This document shows positions 14,475-63,445 of a DNA stretch of 64,000 bases, in pieces (position 1 is the first letter of the stretch; each line of letters begins with the position of its first letter). Under the pieces are notes generated by a model. The model saw only the letters and a program-made list of their open reading frames with translations, made no database searches and was not told where the DNA came from. The stretch lies in IMG/VR virus record IMGVR_UViG_3300034283_001314; one strand, written 5' to 3'. Source of the DNA: a virus (taxonomy: Duplodnaviria; Heunggongvirae; Uroviricota; Caudoviricetes). Position numbers and translations under genes: made by a program.

Positions 14475-14590
14475 CAACTCATTGATTATCAACAAGTTAT
14501 AACTTATTGGTTTTCAATGGGTTATCTATGTCTATTAGATTTTTTTTATATATGAAAAAAACATATGCGTAACTGATTGATCCTCAATAA
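14475..14590. repeat. dyad operator-like repeat cassette (nearly identical to 22093-22205)
   Basis: 'aactcattgattatcaacaagttataacttattggttttcaatgggttat' plus 'gcgtaactgattgatcctcaat', about 50 nt of which are shared nearly verbatim with the cassette at 22.1 kb. Confidence 0.6.
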
Positions 14591-14619
14591 AAACTTTTAA
14601 AAATAGTTCAAAAATAGCA

Positions 14620-22238: not shown

Positions 22239-22268
22239 TTGTTAGTCCAATAAAAAGTCGTATCTTTG
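22239..22268 (+). promoter_or_regulatory. Bacteroidetes-type promoter (GTCGTATCTTTG class)
   Basis: TTG at 22239-22241 and TATCTTTG at 22261-22268. Confidence 0.5.
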
Positions 22269-23841: not shown

Positions 23842-24159
23842 ATGATAACGATAAAGAATATAGATAAAATAGTATCAATCAATTCACAAGATATTGAAGT
23901 GATGGATTGGAAACAAGAACCTGATTATTATCAATTTACATTTGAGCATGATAACATACATTCAACAACTTTCGTAGCTAAAATGAATAGACATCATGAT
24001 TGGGGTGATACCGATTCATATAGAATGAGATTATGGGATGGTATAAATAGTTCACCATTAGAATATAATTTTGGATTGCATGATATAGAAAATCCATTCA
24101 CATTACTCAACTACTTAAAAGATGTATTGTATGATTGGGATAATATAACAAACAAATAA
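23842..24159 (+). CDS. member of the ML(I/K)I(K/Q)N small-protein family
   Basis: Starts 'MITIKNIDKIV' at the ATG directly after the ligase stop. 'DYYQFTFEH' parallels 'DYYQFSIHS' in 37488. Confidence 0.45.
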   Translation: MITIKNIDKIVSINSQDIEVMDWKQEPDYYQFTFEHDNIHSTTFVAKMNRHHDWGDTDSYRMRLWDGINSSPLEYNFGLHDIENPFTLLNYLKDVLYDWDNITNK

Positions 24160-33304: not shown

Positions 33305-33355
33305 CTGATATATAGAAAAAATATAATATGTTGAACCCTCTCAAACGCAATAGCA

Positions 33356-33386
33356 ATAGGTAGTCTTAAAAAACTACCTATTTTTG
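33356..33386 (+). terminator. rho-independent terminator
   Basis: ATAGGTAGT-cttaaaaa-ACTACCTAT followed by T5. Confidence 0.65.
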
Positions 33387-33417
33387 TTGGAAAAATGGGT
33401 ATTTTTTCGTATCTTTA
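33383..33417 (+). promoter_or_regulatory. Bacteroidetes-type promoter
   Basis: TTG at 33387-33389 and TATCTTTA at 33410-33417. Confidence 0.45.
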
Positions 33418-34824: not shown

Positions 34825-35060
34825 TAGTATTATTAATAGCATCATTTATGATAGGTTGGTTAGTTGGTGCAAAACAAGAACAAAAAAGACTTGCAAAATA
34901 TGGTACAATCGGTACAAAACCAAAAACACAAACCGATTATCAAAGAGAGCATGCAAAAATACCACCTTGTGTTGGACATGAATTAGAATCTCAAAAAGAA
35001 ATTGAGAAAGCAGATATTGATTTTATGTATAAGTGGATACGAGAAAAAAGCGGTAAATAA
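34821..35060 (+). CDS. small membrane protein
   Basis: N-terminal TM helix. Confidence 0.45.
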   Translation: MIVLLIASFMIGWLVGAKQEQKRLAKYGTIGTKPKTQTDYQREHAKIPPCVGHELESQKEIEKADIDFMYKWIREKSGK

Positions 35061-35329
35061 TGATAGTAATACAAAATAGTGAAGCAATTGTTAGACGTGA
35101 TTTAGAAGATGATTGGTATGTATTGAATATAAAGAAAGGTTACAATAAATACTACATTAATCTAACAAAATCCGGTGAAATGTTATTTAAAAATTGTGAG
35201 TTGAGTAGGCAAATGAATGAAGGAGGCAGTTATATGTTAAAATGTGGAACTGAATATATCTTATTAACTAAACCACAAATAGGTGATATGAAATATATTT
35301 TACAATGTTTAAATACTTTTATATGCTAA
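35060..35329 (+). CDS. member of the ML(I/K)I(K/Q)N small-protein family
   Basis: Starts 'MIVIQNSEAIV'. Confidence 0.45.
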   Translation: MIVIQNSEAIVRRDLEDDWYVLNIKKGYNKYYINLTKSGEMLFKNCELSRQMNEGGSYMLKCGTEYILLTKPQIGDMKYILQCLNTFIC

Positions 35330-35625
35330 CAATAAAGAACTACAATGTGATAAATGGAAGAACATTAGGTAACGATGGACATAAAATTGTAGGTGTTGAT
35401 GAATTACCAACACAATATACTATAATTTGTTATGATAATAAAAATCCAAGATTTACAATATGTTTAGAACGAATGGGTATCAATAATAATTATGAATTAT
35501 GGATGAGGCAACCATCACCAAAACCATCCCGTAGAGTTAAAACTAAAAGAATGTTTATACCAAAAGATGATATTAAAAACAAATGGATATTGTTAGAACA
35601 TATAGACGATTTACTACTTAAATAA
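35323..35625 (+). CDS. member of the ML(I/K)I(K/Q)N small-protein family
   Basis: The internal ATG gives 'MLTIKNYNVIN'; an alternative start is at 35305. Confidence 0.4.
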   Translation: MLTIKNYNVINGRTLGNDGHKIVGVDELPTQYTIICYDNKNPRFTICLERMGINNNYELWMRQPSPKPSRRVKTKRMFIPKDDIKNKWILLEHIDDLLLK

Positions 35626-35717
35626 TGTACGAAAAACAAACAATACTATATGTGGTGTGTATAATGATTGCATACATTTGGTATTTGTATGATACGAATA
35701 AAGATAAAAGAAAATAA
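35625..35717 (+). CDS. tiny membrane peptide (30 aa)
   Basis: TAATG overlap with the upstream stop; the peptide is one hydrophobic helix. Confidence 0.25.
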   Translation: MYEKQTILYVVCIMIAYIWYLYDTNKDKRK

Positions 35718-35718
35718 T

Positions 35719-35847
35719 ATGCATCCTTTTACAATAGTATTAATAATAGTGGGAATAGCAAATGGGTTGAATATATGGTATATGATTCGAAGTAGAAGAT
35801 TACACAATTTATGTATTAAAAGACGAAAAGAAAATAAAAAGAAATAA
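35719..35847 (+). CDS. small membrane peptide (42 aa) with basic tail
   Basis: A TM helix followed by an RRKENKKK tail, a holin-like architecture. This is speculative. Confidence 0.3.
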   Translation: MHPFTIVLIIVGIANGLNIWYMIRSRRLHNLCIKRRKENKKK

Positions 35848-35850
35848 TTT

Positions 35851-36111
35851 ATGATTAACCTAAATGAAATAATTAATGGTTGGGCAAATGTTATTAAAGA
35901 TAGAATAGGAACATTGGACCCGAATATAAAACAAATGGCAGAGAATAGATTGATATTATGTAATTCTTGTCATATGAGAATAGGGAATAGTTGTAGCACT
36001 AAAAATGTTGGAATAAACGAAATAACAAAAAAAGAAACAAACGGATGTGGATGTAATATATCTGCAAAAACTTTAAGTCCGGATAGTAAGTGCCCATTGA
36101 GTAAGTGGTAA
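35851..36111 (+). CDS. six-Cys small protein (paralog of 49828-50112)
   Basis: 'CNSCH...CS', 'GCGC' and a C-terminal 'CPLSKW'. The N-terminus 'EIINGWANVI' matches 'EIIGAWVISF' of the paralog. Confidence 0.45.
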   Translation: MINLNEIINGWANVIKDRIGTLDPNIKQMAENRLILCNSCHMRIGNSCSTKNVGINEITKKETNGCGCNISAKTLSPDSKCPLSKW

Positions 36112-36134
36112 TTAAATAATTTAAATTAAATAAT

Positions 36135-36356
36135 ATGAAAATAGAGTTTAGTATGTTCAGTAATTTCAGGTCACTAATTGGATTTGAAATAGAACGCAAT
36201 GGTGCAGTTAGAAAAGATAAAAACGATAGTCCGGTATTTCAAAGGACAGTAGAAATTACAATTGGTTTCTTATTTGGATATCTGTCACTTAACTTTGATT
36301 TGGGAAATGCGGTATCAATAGAGAAATTAATTACCGAACATAAAGATTTGTTATAG
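36135..36356 (+). CDS. hypothetical protein
   Basis: ATG ORF. Confidence 0.45.
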   Translation: MKIEFSMFSNFRSLIGFEIERNGAVRKDKNDSPVFQRTVEITIGFLFGYLSLNFDLGNAVSIEKLITEHKDLL

Positions 36357-36357
36357 T

Positions 36358-36825
36358 ATGTTAAAGATTAAAAATAGTATATTAATATTTTCAATTATAC
36401 TAATATTCACATCTTGTCAAAAAAGAATTGATTATTCAACGGATATTAATAAGTTAAAAGCAGAGATAGAACTTTTAAAACAAAGTAATGTAAAATATGA
36501 AAATGATTTGAGTGTATTAAAAACACAAGTTAATCTATTTAAATTACAAATGGATTCTATAAAAATCCAAACGGATTCAATTCAAATAAAATTGAAAAAT
36601 GTAGACAAATCAATATCGAACATTTATACAATAATAGAAACTATTAATAAGTTAATGTTGGAAATTAATATAAAAATATATGATTTACAATATCAATTAG
36701 AACAAAATAGATTTGAATATTATAGAATAGTAAGTGCCTTAGTTGATATCATAGATAATATTGGTTTGTTAAACAGAGAAGTTTCAGGATTGATAGAGGC
36801 AGTTCAAAATCTACAAAAAAAATAA
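36358..36825 (+). CDS. coiled-coil lipoprotein
   Basis: 'SILIFSIILIFTSCQ' is a signal peptide with a lipobox. The remainder is predicted coiled-coil. Confidence 0.5.
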   Translation: MLKIKNSILIFSIILIFTSCQKRIDYSTDINKLKAEIELLKQSNVKYENDLSVLKTQVNLFKLQMDSIKIQTDSIQIKLKNVDKSISNIYTIIETINKLMLEINIKIYDLQYQLEQNRFEYYRIVSALVDIIDNIGLLNREVSGLIEAVQNLQKK

Positions 36826-36827
36826 CT

Positions 36828-37097
36828 ATGTTAACAATACAAAATCCACAAAAATTAATTGGGGAAAAATATAATGAAACATTTACTATCATTGGGGTTA
36901 AAGAACATAAACATCATTACGAATTTACATTAGGATATGATGCGAGTATAAAACCGGCAGTAGAAACAATATTACTACATAGAAAGCAAACCGATAACGG
37001 AATGTATGTAATGGAATACAATAGTAAAACACTTTGGTTAAACAAAGATGAATTTGATACGATAGATAAGATTATAATTTGTATGCAAACAATATAG
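36828..37097 (+). CDS. member of the ML(I/K)I(K/Q)N small-protein family
   Basis: Starts 'MLTIQNPQKLIG'. 'TIIGVKE' parallels 'TIAGVKE' in 37488. Confidence 0.5.
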   Translation: MLTIQNPQKLIGEKYNETFTIIGVKEHKHHYEFTLGYDASIKPAVETILLHRKQTDNGMYVMEYNSKTLWLNKDEFDTIDKIIICMQTI

Positions 37098-37107
37098 TAC
37101 ACTTTTT

Positions 37108-37143
37108 GGTGGGGCGGGGGTTGGGGGAAAAAAGTGTCGTTGG
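37108..37143 (+). other. G-rich island with G-quadruplex-forming potential (plus strand)
   Basis: GGTGGGGCGGGGGTTGGGGG...TGGG sits in otherwise roughly 30% GC intergenic DNA. Confidence 0.5.
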
Positions 37144-37176
37144 GAAATTTTTTTGATAGTATAAATCATATATACA

Positions 37177-37482
37177 ATGTTAATAATACAAAACATAGAT
37201 AAAATAAAAAGTAAATTACAACAAAAGGTAATCATTGAGGAATTTGAATTAGTATATAGATTCTACATTGATAACCCAAATTACTTAGGTGGCAAGAATG
37301 GTATATGGCAACCAATGAAGTGGGAAATTACATTGAGTAGAGTTCATCCACCTGATATAAATCATCCACATAGAAACTACTATCTATTATCAAATGGTAA
37401 AAAACAAATATGGTTACTACCAAATGAAATAACACTAGATAAGATAGTGGATAGTATTAAATTAATGGGATTCTTAAATTAA
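37177..37482 (+). CDS. member of the ML(I/K)I(K/Q)N small-protein family
   Basis: Starts 'MLIIQNIDKIKSKL'. Confidence 0.5.
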   Translation: MLIIQNIDKIKSKLQQKVIIEEFELVYRFYIDNPNYLGGKNGIWQPMKWEITLSRVHPPDINHPHRNYYLLSNGKKQIWLLPNEITLDKIVDSIKLMGFLN

Positions 37483-37487
37483 ACATA

Positions 37488-37832
37488 ATGCTGATAATAA
37501 AAAACATAGATAGAATAAAGCATAAGGTAATACAATTCGGTGGTGAGACATGGACGATAGCAGGTGTAAAAGAAGCTGGTTTGTTAGATGGTGATTATTA
37601 TCAATTCAGTATACATTCATTTTTTGGTAATAAGATGGTACATATATTTTTGAATAGAGAAACGAAAGGTGAAAAGCAGAAGGAGCAAGAGTATTATCAC
37701 TATGAGGGTAGAGGTGAATACTATGAATTGATAAGTAGCTGGGATAGTGATATGGTTACAATAAATAAAGAGTTATTAAGTAAGGAAGGATTATTAATGT
37801 TTATGCAAAAAATGTTAGAAACAATAAAATAA
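37488..37832 (+). CDS. member of the ML(I/K)I(K/Q)N small-protein family
   Basis: Starts 'MLIIKNIDRIKHK'. Confidence 0.5.
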   Translation: MLIIKNIDRIKHKVIQFGGETWTIAGVKEAGLLDGDYYQFSIHSFFGNKMVHIFLNRETKGEKQKEQEYYHYEGRGEYYELISSWDSDMVTINKELLSKEGLLMFMQKMLETIK

Positions 37833-37838
37833 GATACA

Positions 37839-38171
37839 ATGTTAAAGATACAAAATATAAATAAGATAAAAGGGTTGACAGTGAATGGTTGTAAAGTATT
37901 AGATATAGAATATAATACTATACAAAGAGGATATATTTTTACAATGGAAGATACACATGGTTTAAATTCAGAAAAAACAGGCCAGTTTTTAATTAAATTA
38001 TTAGATACCAATTATGAAGTAGATGAATATGAATTTTTTATAATGGGATGGAAGGTAGCAACTGAACGAAGTGTCACTAAAGAAAAAATCCGTAATATGA
38101 ATGGATTTGCAAATCAAATGTATGAACTGATTGAGAGAGGTGTTAAAGTTTTAAAAAGTTATAATAAATAA
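37839..38171 (+). CDS. member of the ML(I/K)I(K/Q)N small-protein family
   Basis: Starts 'MLKIQNINKIKGL'. Confidence 0.5.
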   Translation: MLKIQNINKIKGLTVNGCKVLDIEYNTIQRGYIFTMEDTHGLNSEKTGQFLIKLLDTNYEVDEYEFFIMGWKVATERSVTKEKIRNMNGFANQMYELIERGVKVLKSYNK

Positions 38172-38177
38172 AACCAT

Positions 38178-38501
38178 ATGTTAGTAATAAAGAATTGTGA
38201 AAAACTAAAAGGTGAGGAAGTCCTTAATTTTAGAACGGCGGAAAGGTATGAGATAGAAGGGATGTATGAAGATAGTGATTGTTATAAAATACATTTACGG
38301 TCCGTACATAAACCAATAGTAGATGAGGTATTTATACTATTAAGAAATAAAGTCCAAAACGAAAGCGGTTTTACATATAATTACTATACCCTATACAATA
38401 GTAATGAACCACAAAGCAGGCAGAATGTAACAATGGATATGATAAGATTAAAAGAAATGTTGTTACACTCAATAGAACAAATCTTAAAAATGAGAAACTA
38501 A
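38178..38501 (+). CDS. member of the ML(I/K)I(K/Q)N small-protein family
   Basis: Starts 'MLVIKNCEKLKGE'. Confidence 0.5.
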   Translation: MLVIKNCEKLKGEEVLNFRTAERYEIEGMYEDSDCYKIHLRSVHKPIVDEVFILLRNKVQNESGFTYNYYTLYNSNEPQSRQNVTMDMIRLKEMLLHSIEQILKMRN

Positions 38502-38506
38502 AAACA

Positions 38507-38779
38507 ATGTCGGTAGTAAAAATAATAATCATAATACTATTCAGTCTATTGAGTATAAAAGTAAAAGGACAGAGTATAGAGAAACAAAACGAAGATACAC
38601 TTACTCAATCAATATACTATCAACACACTATCATAAACACAAAGAGAATAAGTGTGTATGGGTATAGTTCATATGATTTAAACTTTGGAGATGAGAGTGG
38701 TATAGGTATTGTATATAGTATAAGGTATAGAAATAAAAAAAAGAAACTAAAACAAATAAGATATGAATATAATAAATAA
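38507..38779 (+). CDS. small secreted protein
   Basis: N-terminal signal peptide 'VVKIIIIILFSLLSIKVKG'. Confidence 0.45.
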   Translation: MSVVKIIIIILFSLLSIKVKGQSIEKQNEDTLTQSIYYQHTIINTKRISVYGYSSYDLNFGDESGIGIVYSIRYRNKKKKLKQIRYEYNK

Positions 38780-38789
38780 AATCTCTAAT

Positions 38790-38942
38790 ATGGATGGGAT
38801 AGACGAATATATCCTATTAAGTAAAGAGAGTATAGATAGGTTAGTGAATGATAGTAAGAGACTGGATGATAAGAGCCAAAAGTTAATCGTACAAATGAGT
38901 AAATGGATGTATGATAACGATATGATTGAATACGAAGATTAA
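38790..38942 (+). CDS. small hypothetical protein (50 aa)
   Basis: ATG ORF filling the gap. Confidence 0.3.
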   Translation: MDGIDEYILLSKESIDRLVNDSKRLDDKSQKLIVQMSKWMYDNDMIEYED

Positions 38943-38954
38943 ATAAAAAATACA

Positions 38955-39239
38955 ATGTTAAGTTATAGTGAAGATTTTGATTCCATAATTCATGTAAGAG
39001 TAAACGGAGAAACAATTATGGAATTAGAGAGAATATATGAAGTAGATGAAAATAAAAATTCTTATAGTGAAGTAGTTAATCAATGTAGGTTAATGAACAT
39101 ATTGAATAAAAAGCAGAAAGGATATGTACGGATTGAGAATGTAGAGTTATGGCAGTGTATATGGTATAGGGATAGTGGAATGTATGAGGAAATTCGTCTA
39201 ACTACAATTAAAGTAAATAATAAAAGAAAAAGGGTATAA
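38955..39239 (+). CDS. hypothetical protein
   Basis: ATG ORF. Confidence 0.45.
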   Translation: MLSYSEDFDSIIHVRVNGETIMELERIYEVDENKNSYSEVVNQCRLMNILNKKQKGYVRIENVELWQCIWYRDSGMYEEIRLTTIKVNNKRKRV

Positions 39240-39242
39240 AGT

Positions 39243-39533
39243 ATGTTGATAATAAAAAACCTATATAAGATAAGACACCAACCGATAGTAGAAGGATGGA
39301 TAGTATTTGATGTAGGATTGATAAGTAATACATTGGAGTACGAATTTATTTTACACAATACAATAGGGAATGCAATACAACGGGTTTATTTAGAAAGAGT
39401 AAAATCGAATCATAGATGGTATAGGTTATATACGGAAAGGAGAGGCAAAAGATATGTTCAATTAGTAACGAAAGAAACAATACAAAATATAAAAGAATTA
39501 TTAGAACACATACAAGTAGTAGGAATAAATTAA
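39243..39533 (+). CDS. member of the ML(I/K)I(K/Q)N small-protein family
   Basis: Starts 'MLIIKNLYKIRHQ'. Confidence 0.5.
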   Translation: MLIIKNLYKIRHQPIVEGWIVFDVGLISNTLEYEFILHNTIGNAIQRVYLERVKSNHRWYRLYTERRGKRYVQLVTKETIQNIKELLEHIQVVGIN

Positions 39534-39553
39534 TAAAACAAAACAAAATAAAA

Positions 39554-39697
39554 ATGGAAAAGATTAAAAAGATTTGGAATTTAGTGTATGTACCAACGGC
39601 ATTTATTTTAGGTGGATTGAATATGTGGATAGGTGAAACGGGTATAGGTTGTCTATTTATTTTATTTGCAACGAATGAAACAATAAATAAAGATTAG
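39554..39697 (+). CDS. small membrane peptide (47 aa)
   Basis: ATG ORF with a TM helix. Confidence 0.3.
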   Translation: MEKIKKIWNLVYVPTAFILGGLNMWIGETGIGCLFILFATNETINKD

Positions 39698-39970
39698 AGG
39701 ATATCATAATAGCTAAAAGATATATCAATATACTAATATACATATTTTGATATATACATACATAATAATAAGGTCCGATGTATGATATTTTACCACTTAC
39801 TCCCACATTCACCCACAATTCAACACACATAAGGGATACAAAGAACTATCATATTAAATAAAACCTATTAAAGTAGTTTTCAGTCCTTATCCATTCACAT
39901 TGTCGGACCGCAAAATTTTTTAGGGAATATTTTTACATAGTTAGTTCACACAAAAAAGAAACCTTTAATA

Positions 39971-40002
39971 TTTGGTAGTGTAAAATAAATTTCGTATCTT
40001 TG
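39971..40002 (+). promoter_or_regulatory. Bacteroidetes-type promoter
   Basis: TTTG at 39971-39974 and TATCTTTG at 39995-40002, spacing 20. Confidence 0.5.
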
Positions 40003-40116
40003 GTATAACAGACTGGGACAGAATATAATACATAATATTCTCAATCGTTGCTAGTTACTCCTTTTTACCCTTTGATAAGTGCAACACCCGGTCTGTTTTT
40101 TATAAAAGCCAATTTA

Positions 40117-40560: not shown

Positions 40561-40765
40561 TATAACTCATTGGAAATCAACCACTTAGAAAATCCCTATA
40601 AAATACTGATAATCAACGAGTTATAACTTGCTGATAATCAATTAGTTGTGTAAAGTACTGAAAATCAATCAGTTATGCAATCCGTTGATTATCAGCAAGT
40701 TATGTCCGGTCCTAACATATAACAAAAAAACATATATGTAACTTGTTGATTATCTATAAAAAACT
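40561..40765. repeat. cluster of at least 5 dyad operator-like repeats
   Basis: Examples are 'ctgataatcaacgagttataacttgctgataatcaattagtt' and 'ccgttgattatcagcaagttatg'. 'catatatgtaacttgttgattatctat' is shared with the copy at 14563. Confidence 0.6.
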
Positions 40766-40783
40766 TTTAAAAATAGTTTGCCC

Positions 40784-62542: not shown

Positions 62543-63445
62543 ATGAATTTAGGATATGCTTGTATTAATCTTTCTTTAGGTAAGAAAGTTACAACAAACC
62601 GAACAATGATTAAACGAACCTTTATTGATAAGGGATTAGATTATGTGTCGGATTTGGTATTGCAAAATGTTACAGACTTAGAAAAGATTATAGATTGGAA
62701 TGAGCAGAATAATATTAAGATGTATCGTATGAGTTCCGATATGATGCCTTGGGCTACTGAATATCAATTTAGTGAATTAAAGGATTGGAACGAAATATCT
62801 ATTATCCTTAAAAGATGTGGTGAGAAGGCAACAAAGTATGGACAAAGATTATCATTTCATCCAGGTCCGTTTAATGTATTAGTATCACCAAAAGAAAGTG
62901 TTGTACTTAATACTATTAACGATTTAGAAGTACATGGTAGACTTATGGATGCTATGGGATTATCACAAACACCCTACAATAAGATTAATATTCATTGTAA
63001 TGGTGTATATGGGGATAAACAAAGTGCAATGGATAGATTTATAACTAATTTCGGAAGACTCTCTAAATCGGTGCAAAATAGGCTTACAATAGAGAATGAT
63101 GATAAGGCAAGTATGTATTCCGTAAAAGATTTAATGTATATTCATCAAAAGATAGGTATTCCTATTGTATTTGATTATCATCACCACAAATTTTGTACAG
63201 GTGATTTAACCGAACAACAAGCATTAGAGTTAGCAATGAGTACGTGGCCTGACGATATAACACCAGCAGTTCATTATTCCGAATCTGCAGTTGGTAAAAA
63301 ACCACAAGCACATTCCGATTATATTTCTGAAACAATTAATACTTATGGTAATACCGTAGATATAATGGTAGAAGCTAAGAAAAAAGATTTAACAATTTTA
63401 AAATATAAACAAGAAAATTATGGCATACTCAGAAAAAGTGCTTGA
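62543..63445 (+). CDS. UV-damage endonuclease (UvdE/Uve1 family)
   Basis: The N-terminus 'MNLGYACINLSL' and the roughly 300-aa length fit UvdE TIM-barrel endonucleases. Confidence 0.55.
   Translation: MNLGYACINLSLGKKVTTNRTMIKRTFIDKGLDYVSDLVLQNVTDLEKIIDWNEQNNIKMYRMSSDMMPWATEYQFSELKDWNEISIILKRCGEKATKYGQRLSFHPGPFNVLVSPKESVVLNTINDLEVHGRLMDAMGLSQTPYNKINIHCNGVYGDKQSAMDRFITNFGRLSKSVQNRLTIENDDKASMYSVKDLMYIHQKIGIPIVFDYHHHKFCTGDLTEQQALELAMSTWPDDITPAVHYSESAVGKKPQAHSDYISETINTYGNTVDIMVEAKKKDLTILKYKQENYGILRKSA

Follow-up and report, generated by a model that had tools for sequence, protein, structure and literature searches.

Tandem arrays of a small protein family with a fixed N-terminal motif and a predicted chaperone-like fold in environmental phages

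Introduction

Do short, mutually divergent phage open reading frames (ORFs) that look alike at their first residues encode one protein family, and what might such a family do? The question is raised by a locus on the IMG/VR virus record IMGVR_UViG_3300034283_001314 (Caudoviricetes), of which a stretch of 64,000 nucleotides (nt) was analysed, referred to here as the window. A preliminary description made from the sequence had reported a tandem array of small diversified paralogs at 35060-39533 and a distal member at 23842, and had remarked that such phage arrays usually code for host-takeover or counter-defence effectors under diversifying selection. Large phages with expanded sets of small paralogs are already known, as is the chaperone-like fold discussed below. 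The family described here had gone unrecognised: it comprises at least 453 sequence clusters, is predicted to be a phage-only miniature of that fold, begins with a fixed N-terminal motif and occurs in hypervariable arrays of up to 22 genes. We tentatively propose that the nine genes of the window represent an undescribed family of single-domain cytoplasmic proteins of about 100 residues, which would act as early binders of host proteins and whose repertoire would be varied by gene turnover.

Identification of the family

A hidden Markov model (HMM) built from the nine proteins was searched against the 485 stop-to-stop ORFs in the six frames of the window. Just those nine were recovered, the next-best match having an E value of 0.09. 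When each member was left out of the model in turn, the omitted protein was always the top match of 477 window ORFs (E 2.8e-5 to 1.5e-13), supporting the earlier view of one homologous family. All nine genes are on the + strand and encode 89-114 amino acids (aa). Their products share pairwise identities of 15-23% in a MAFFT alignment, in which M1, I4, N6 and one Tyr are invariant. Without the first 12 residues, five members (36828, 37488, 38178, 39243 and 23842) remained significant and four (35060, 35323, 37177 and 37839) did not, so that the sequence evidence for these four rests largely on the N-terminal motif.

The main array begins with its most divergent member at 35060-35329 (89 aa; leave-one-out E 2.8e-5), which has a MIVIQN start. 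It is overlapped by 7 nt (ATGCTAA) by the start of the gene at 35323-35625 (100 aa; E 1e-7). The gene at 36828-37097 (89 aa; E 2.4e-10) is a conserved anchor that heads the main array in relatives. It is followed by 37177-37482 (101 aa; E 2.5e-5), by 37488-37832 (114 aa; E 1.4e-11), which belongs to the best-conserved orthogroup across relatives at 73-75% identity, and by 37839-38171 (110 aa; E 3.1e-6). The gene at 38178-38501 (107 aa; E 1.3e-8) supplied the orthogroup for the site-wise selection test described below, and the last of the array, 39243-39533 (96 aa; E 1.5e-13), was modelled with AlphaFold2. The distal member at 23842-24159 (105 aa), with an isoelectric point (pI) of 4.7, lies directly after a DNA ligase gene and was recovered at E 1.6e-9, or at E 2.5e-3 without its first 12 residues. 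The predicted pI of family members has a median of 7.8 and ranges from 4.7 to 9.7, a sign of variable surface charge, and no signal peptide or transmembrane segment was visible in their sequences.

The ORFs named in the preliminary description exist at their coordinates on the + strand, and the strings it quoted (TIIGVKE/TIAGVKE and DYYQFS/DYYQFT) were verified in the sequences. Its distal member was likewise confirmed, but the array contains eight members and not at least nine, and these are not consecutive: seven unrelated ORFs (35668-35847, 35851-36111, 36135-36356, 36358-36825, 38507-38779, 38763-38942 and 38955-39239) break it up. One of them, 36358-36825 on the + strand, encodes 155 aa with a MLKIKN start followed by a lipoprotein-like signal peptide and a coiled coil, and gave no match to the family HMM. 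It was found in the window lineage and in the related contig L011 and is absent at the same position from the relatives L004 and L001; possibly it entered by insertion at the boundary of a family gene. Downstream of the last member, an unusually long segment of 583 nt (39534-40116) is without any ORF longer than 47 aa; a small membrane-like ORF is situated at 39554-39697, and a putative promoter described below (about 39971-40002) also falls within the segment.

N-terminal motif and predicted fold

Among about 120 ORFs of the window, a start of the form M[LI]xIxN occurs in the family members and in ORF 36358 only. Conservation was quantified over 149 clusters at or below 50% identity, with numbering on the 39243 protein. 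The family is best conserved in its N-terminal decapeptide, MLTIxN..K(I/L) (M1 100%, L2 96%, T3 75%, I4 97%, N6 98%, K9 74% and I/L10 97%). Strong conservation continues into the middle of the protein (W/Y/F19 90%, V/I21 93%, Y33 99% and I/F35 95%) and its later part (L50 92%, R52 97% and Y/W/F63 92%), and the C-terminal helix carries a hydrophobic heptad.

An AlphaFold2 model of the 39243 protein from a 109-sequence alignment reached a predicted local distance difference test (pLDDT) score of 91.9 and a predicted template modelling (pTM) score of 0.84. It contains a helix at residues 7-10, strands at 14-16, 19-27, 32-39, 44-52, 59-66 and 69-76, and helices at 77-81 and 83-95. The 35060 protein, the weakest member by sequence, was modelled from its own orthogroup only (25 sequences; pLDDT 79.3, pTM 0.67) and showed five strands and then two C-terminal helices in the same order, with low confidence for residues 1-10. 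The members are thus predicted to fold into a short N-terminal helix, an antiparallel meander sheet of five to six strands and a C-terminal helix. Within the predicted strands, conserved and highly variable positions alternate, a periodicity that fits one sheet face turned to the core and the other exposed.

Structural comparison returned the DUF2170 protein BacA (8q8o_B) with a score of 7.6 over 80 residues at 2.0 A, followed by actin capping protein beta (4akr_D, 6.9), SycH (1ttw_A, 6.5), Rv3902c (4o6g_A, 6.2), ShcA (4g6t_A, 6.0), ExsC (3kxy_A, 5.7), the anti-sigma factor RsfG (7qh3_A, 5.2), PsiB (3nct_A, 5.0) and TriTu (7zhm_D, 4.7). Further type III secretion system (T3SS) chaperones were included in the list. 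A Foldseek search of BFVD gave nothing at E<0.001. In the TY-chaperone superfamily, two helices are stacked on the same side of a five-stranded meander sheet (PMC9503650), the classical topology being a-b-b-b-a-b-b-a (PMC10948618), and its members serve as peptide-binding chaperones or regulators (PMC9503650, PMC5398634, PMC3575483, PMC10948618). The resemblance of the modelled proteins to this fold, as seen in T3SS chaperones, YbjN and DUF2170, is consistent but moderate. When compared with the class I T3SS chaperones (SycH, ShcA, ExsC, SicP and the CesT family), the YbjN superfamily (YbjN, AmyR, DR1245 and Tll0839) and DUF2170 (PF09938; BacA/PA14_16140), the phage family showed no significant sequence or profile similarity. 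Its members have about 100 aa, as opposed to 120-160 aa, and their models are without the middle helix that classical chaperones have between strands 3 and 4. Moreover, they are phage-encoded, occur in 8-22 tandem copies, start with a near-invariant MLTIxN and have no adjacent client genes.

In the 39243 model, the N-terminal motif corresponds to a segment that runs into and includes the short first helix. The core of the fold probably begins with it: L2, I4 and I/L10 are hydrophobic, and N6 may be a helix cap. Its origin as a trace of a conserved upstream DNA element was considered and rejected: the upstream sequences differ between members, so the motif does not continue a promoter or leader from upstream. 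Several distant homologues have 50-75 extra residues ahead of the LTIxN motif, forming a helical extension with a conserved motif of its own (for example LRQMSLxNA), which indicates that a free N-terminus is not required.

The preliminary description had itself named the outcome that would speak against a family, a likeness due to AT-rich codon bias with no shared fold. The motif is indeed encoded by A-rich codons, and AT-rich composition, or selection for A-rich 5' codons at initiation without a Shine-Dalgarno sequence, could in principle produce similar starts in the absence of a real family. In codons 2-10 of the family genes, ATA makes up 83-96% of the Ile codons, a share that falls to 64-70% over the remainder of these genes. 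The non-family ORFs of the window share this A-ending preference after the start codon, less strongly (codons 2-10 versus gene bodies: ATA/Ile 0.61 versus 0.41; ACA/Thr 0.68 versus 0.48), which weakens the case for synonymous conservation in these codons as a family-specific RNA signal. Such a genome-wide bias is in keeping with initiation regions being selected to be A-rich and unstructured in Bacteroidota that lack Shine-Dalgarno sequences (PMC6847099). The compositional explanation was nevertheless refuted and is left with virtually no probability. Conservation at I4 and N6 is position-specific and absent from about 110 other ORFs of the genome, so the motif is not merely compositional; five members are recognised without the N-terminus; Y33, L50 and R52 are conserved in the protein body; two independent models give the same fold; and dN/dS is below 1, as reported below.

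A conserved N-terminal decapeptide in front of divergent small proteins encoded by a hypervariable locus also recalls the phage T4 internal proteins IPI, IPII and IPIII. These share an N-terminal capsid-targeting sequence and a prohead-protease site, (L/I)xE, have unrelated mature parts, and are encoded by a locus that is likewise hyperplastic. The family could accordingly be imagined as virion-internal proteins, with the N-terminus as a capsid-targeting or processing signal and the cargo injected with the DNA to disarm the host. The dominance of the decapeptide in the conservation profile and the hyperplasticity of the locus between relatives would suit such proteins. However, the T4-type signature was not found: the bodies share a predicted fold and conserved core residues beyond the N-terminus, no conserved Glu or (L/I)xE-type cleavage motif follows the N-terminal motif, and the distant members carry it behind an extension. 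In addition, the genes are preceded by putative host-type promoters and have DNA-metabolism genes, not structural ones, as their neighbours, a context that points to early and not late expression. We regard a virion-internal role as very unlikely.

Distribution, copy number and selection

A word-seeded search yielded 121 and then 99 metagenomic proteins, none of them named. When the HMM was run exhaustively over 1.84 billion cluster representatives, at least 453 clusters (50% identity) were identified at E<=1e-3, 33 of which were at E<=1e-10; nearly all of the 453 are 88-120 aa long and match end to end. Searches of Pfam-A, PHROGs v4, NCBIfam 20 and PADLOC 2.0 gave only scattered sub-threshold matches, none consistent across members, and the absence of any significant match there or among PDB sequences bears out the view that the family is uncharacterised. 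Among the isolated phages of INPHARED, a tblastn search with the family consensus found no match. In the GTDB representative genomes, an orthogroup-pattern scan found zero relatives, and a degenerate DNA pattern for MLTI[KEQ]NIxK[ILF] gave 41 single matches, none of which was a family member by HMM.

These two bacterial scans bear on the possibility that the paralogs are immunity- or antitoxin-like inhibitors, each directed against one toxin, for example a polymorphic toxin or an effector of host abortive infection, so that the locus would be an orphan immunity array. Apart from the lack of members in bacterial genomes by these two scans, toxin genes are not adjacent to the family genes, and structural matches of the immunity type score below those to chaperones. 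An immunity function therefore appears doubtful.

Copy number proved highly variable. HMM scans counted 11 family copies in 20 kb of L001, 22 in 19 kb of L004, 12 in L020, 14 in L068 and, in two scans, 20-21 in L018. Related phages thus range from 9 copies, the number in the window, to 22, and the flanking genes are conserved between close relatives that differ in this way. At >=45% identity, 111 members from ten loci fell into 47 orthogroups. A few anchor orthogroups, of the 36828, 37488 and 38178 types, are common to the relatives, and the remainder differ from genome to genome. On more distant contigs (31-36% G+C), members were found in groups of two to three (L084 2931-4333 and L086 2-1140).

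The genes are tightly packed: 62 of 76 start -7 to +11 nt from the upstream stop codon. Most of the others follow spacers of 66-87 nt, and two follow longer ones of 108 and 150 nt; the spacers carry a putative host-type promoter or a second conserved element described below. Ten of ten start/stop overlaps of 7 nt read ATGCTAA, though ATGTTAA would encode the same. Of the 19 family genes of L004 with Leu as second residue, 15 encode it by the rare codon CTA, which has a share of about 10% genome-wide. Dominance of CTA at codon 2 was also seen in the family genes of L001 and L068 and in 35323 of the window.

Class I T3SS chaperones are acidic, and their genes stand beside those of their cognate effectors. 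By analogy, the paralogs might be dedicated chaperones or adaptors of the phage's own proteins, serving in assembly, secretion or stabilisation with one paralog per client. The fold likeness to these chaperones and to YbjN-like protein stabilisers (PMC9503650, PMC5398634) argues for such a role. The family nevertheless shows neither of the two class I traits: its pI values, in contrast to the uniformly acidic ones of the class I T3SS chaperones, spread to both sides of neutrality, and its members abut one another without partner genes. A copy number that shifts so widely between close relatives with conserved flanks is also hard to reconcile with essential cognate clients, and we consider service to phage proteins improbable.

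The claim of diversifying selection was examined by estimating the ratio of non-synonymous to synonymous substitution rates (dN/dS) pairwise by the NG86 method for seven members against their relatives of about 91% nucleotide identity, L011, L013 and L015. The values were 0.12 for 35060, 0.57 for 35323, 0.29 for 36828, 0.16 for 37177, 0.48 for 37839, 0.28 for 38178 and 0.30 for 39243, with 0.03-0.54 for neighbouring genes. Pooled pN/pS values were 0.29-0.37 for the family versus 0.20-0.30 for other genes. For the 38178 orthogroup, parsimony counting on a neighbour-joining tree of 19 distinct metagenome DNA sequences gave an omega of about 0.42; windows of 15 codons ranged from 0.07 (the YNYYTLYNSNEPQRR segment) to 0.72, none exceeding 1, and no site among the 19 sequences had a significant non-synonymous excess (lowest p 0.07, uncorrected). 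The orthologues are under purifying selection that is somewhat relaxed, by tests that are coarse and that a few positively selected sites could escape. With dN/dS below 1 throughout, diversifying selection is not supported, and the diversity stems mainly from old duplications together with gene gain and loss.

Transcriptional context

A sigma-70 promoter scan of the window found fewer sites than in shuffled sequences. A different promoter-type motif was spotted by eye in the intergenic regions and then scanned for in the window. It consists of TCGTATCTTTG/A with TTTG or TTGG 19-21 nt upstream, and the analysis drew on 11 + strand sites with 0-1 mismatch, starting at 2402, 3576, 6445, 14639, 22258, 33407, 39992, 40808, 56634, 59432 and 62519. 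These sites fall between ORFs, except for 33407, where the longest ORF call has its first codons. With up to 2 mismatches allowed, 54 matches were found versus 23 expected. The motif fits the Bacteroidetes sigma-A promoter consensus TTTG/TANNTTTG, later refined to TAHHTTTG (PMC6847099, PMC9723704).

On this basis, the main array appears to lie in one transcription unit, extending from after a terminator-like hairpin at 33355-33382 (+ strand) to before the next putative Bacteroidota-type promoter at 39971-40002 (+ strand). The unit would start at a putative promoter at 33383-33417 (+ strand) with TTGG, a 19-nt interval and a -7 box within TCGTATCTTTA at 33407-33417. The unit containing the ligase gene and the distal member is preceded by an exact TCGTATCTTTG as a putative -7 motif at 22258-22268 (+ strand). 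The window as a whole may comprise about 11 units transcribed by host RNA polymerase. In the relatives, putative promoters bracket the arrays of L004 (6519 and 16990), L018 and L020, and one lies directly before a 35060-type gene. This placement behind putative host-type promoters suggests transcription by the unmodified host RNA polymerase and hence early expression. An intergenic repeat of about 60 nt with 84% identity covers two promoter regions, at 14548-14608 and 40717-40778.

A second conserved intergenic element is located inside the array at 37098-37176 (+ strand). It contains a 9-bp stem with a 20-nt G-rich loop (GGTGGGGCGGGGGTTGGGGG), after which come TTTTTTTGATAGTATAAA and AT-rich DNA that reaches the ATG of 37177. 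Copies consisting of a G-rich stem-loop and then TTTTTTTGATAGTAKAAA were found in L001 (9631-9728), L004 (9638-9735 and 13226-13321) and L018 (12895-12960) and are about 80% conserved. Always directly upstream of a family gene, the element departs from the host promoter consensus. Its stem-loop exceeds shuffled sequences in stability by a small margin only (z -1.9), and the G-run loop GGTGGGGCGGGGGTTGGGGG is a possible G-quadruplex.

Genomic context and host

The window has a G+C content of about 29%, and essentially all its genes lie on one strand. Recognisable products include a phage-type ATP-dependent DNA ligase, an HNH endonuclease, a DNA methyltransferase and UvdE, along with an AAA_5 ATPase, a radical-SAM protein, PfkB, Band_7 and a flavodoxin-like reductase; judging by these genes, the window is an early DNA-metabolism and accessory region. 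Scans for tRNAs and with Rfam gave zero matches in the window. The ligase, the endonuclease, the methyltransferase, UvdE, the matches to IMG/VR contigs and a 696-aa protein resembling those of huge phages all identify the element as a phage. Counterparts of this last protein, at about 36% identity, come from an uncultured phage of 484 kb and from Microcystis phage Mel-JY01.

A near-identity search of the array DNA against the INPHARED phages found no match, showing that isolated phages hold no close relative. Positions 27488-47832, in contrast, are 100% identical over 20,345 nt to the Joint Genome Institute (JGI) metagenome contig 3300036398 Ga0334988_0000366 (L007). Ten data blocks contain the exact 37488 protein on contigs of the 0.2-1 Mb class, and a homologue was located on a 232.8-kb contig, from which the genome is probably larger than 200 kb. 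The identity with L007 and the exact 37488 protein on such long contigs suggest a widespread jumbo phage population.

Genes of the window lack Shine-Dalgarno sequences, which is typical of Bacteroidota (PMC6847099), and the promoter-like motifs match the Bacteroidetes sigma-A consensus. From these two features, the host is probably a member of the Bacteroidota; the promoter grammar thus supplies a host assignment. Huge freshwater phages of Bacteroidetes with 27-34% G+C are on record (PMC9723584), and jumbophages of freshwater Flavobacterium have recently been isolated (PMC13573597). The phage of the window is a large freshwater one, and the family would be confined to a clade of such phages with Bacteroidota as their probable hosts.

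Two further observations concern the genome as a whole. Distant paralog pairs of 23-31% identity exist elsewhere in the window (28642-29304/44779-45453, 32471-33301/60365-61252 and 44779-45453/51834-52655), so gene duplication is not confined to the small family. The UvdE gene lies at 62543-63445 of the window, about 25 kb downstream of the array, whereas in L004 (7540-8418) and L001 (6369-7250) it sits inside the array region between family members, indicating rearrangement between related genomes.

Discussion

If the tentative reading as early binders of host proteins holds, the family genes would be transcribed early by the host RNA polymerase. In each product, L2, I4, N6, K9, I/L10, W19, V21, Y33, F/I35, L50, R52 and Y63, together with the heptad of the C-terminal helix, would build the core on one sheet face. 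The proteins would then be non-enzymatic binding modules whose specificity resides on the variable sheet face and the loops, which would bind extended segments of differing targets, most likely takeover or defence factors among the host proteins that the phage has to sequester or inhibit. They might act by inhibition, sequestration or re-targeting. The lack of partner genes beside the paralogs and the freedom of copy number to vary make host proteins the likeliest targets. The repertoire would be altered by whole-gene tandem duplication, loss and exchange, not by rapid point substitution. A host-takeover or counter-defence role, as first suggested for this locus, is consistent with the small size, the predicted peptide-binder-like fold, the putative host-type promoters and the high gene turnover.

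Several points weigh against this proposal. A profile search of PDB sequences gave no relevant match. Pfam YbjN (PF10722) matched 4 of 109 members, all below threshold (best E 0.0085), and hhalign of the family profile against a shallow enterobacterial YbjN profile gave a probability of 0.1%, so that membership of the TY-chaperones is not borne out at the level of sequence. The predicted fold would suit a phage-protein chaperone, an immunity protein or a regulator equally well. Core positions were assigned to the conserved residues from strand periodicity and the promoters from a match to a consensus, and the second conserved element inside the arrays could drive non-early expression.

Phages T4 and SPO1 carry blocks of small early host-takeover genes. 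Bacillus phage G has a zinc-ribbon family of about 35 copies that arose by lineage-specific expansion (PMC7824862). What the present arrays have in common with these cases is an abundance of small ORFs, paralogous or accessory, that lie outside the structural regions of large phage genomes and vary in content between relatives. They differ in fold and family, and here all copies are homologous, tightly packed and equipped with a fixed N-terminal motif. PsiB and other early small inhibitors from plasmid leading regions have no sequence relationship to the family, belong to another mobile element and are encoded by single-copy genes.

A more specific idea, which we consider unlikely, is that the arrays are an exchangeable cassette library of chaperone-fold binders, forming a host-takeover or anti-defence island of freshwater Bacteroidota jumbo phages in which the fixed 5' module, beyond its part in the fold core, acts as a standard junction. 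The module, ATG-CTA/TTA-ACA-ATA..., has a built-in +1-frame stop that is used in every 7-nt ATGCTAA overlap, and the junction would let whole genes duplicate, vanish or be swapped with translational coupling kept. Such a library would explain why the ten loci have 47 orthogroups and why the otherwise rare CTA is in excess at position 2.

Large environmental phages abound in small ORFs that lack annotation. A block of these can now be read as one coherent family, and its example cautions that high divergence between paralogs does not here mean positive selection. Conflict between phages and their hosts is poorly explored in Bacteroidota. If the proposed reading is true, the family would offer a way into the study of how freshwater jumbo phages take over their hosts early on, and if host factors are indeed bound, the arrays would constitute a ready-made panel of natural inhibitors for Bacteroidota.

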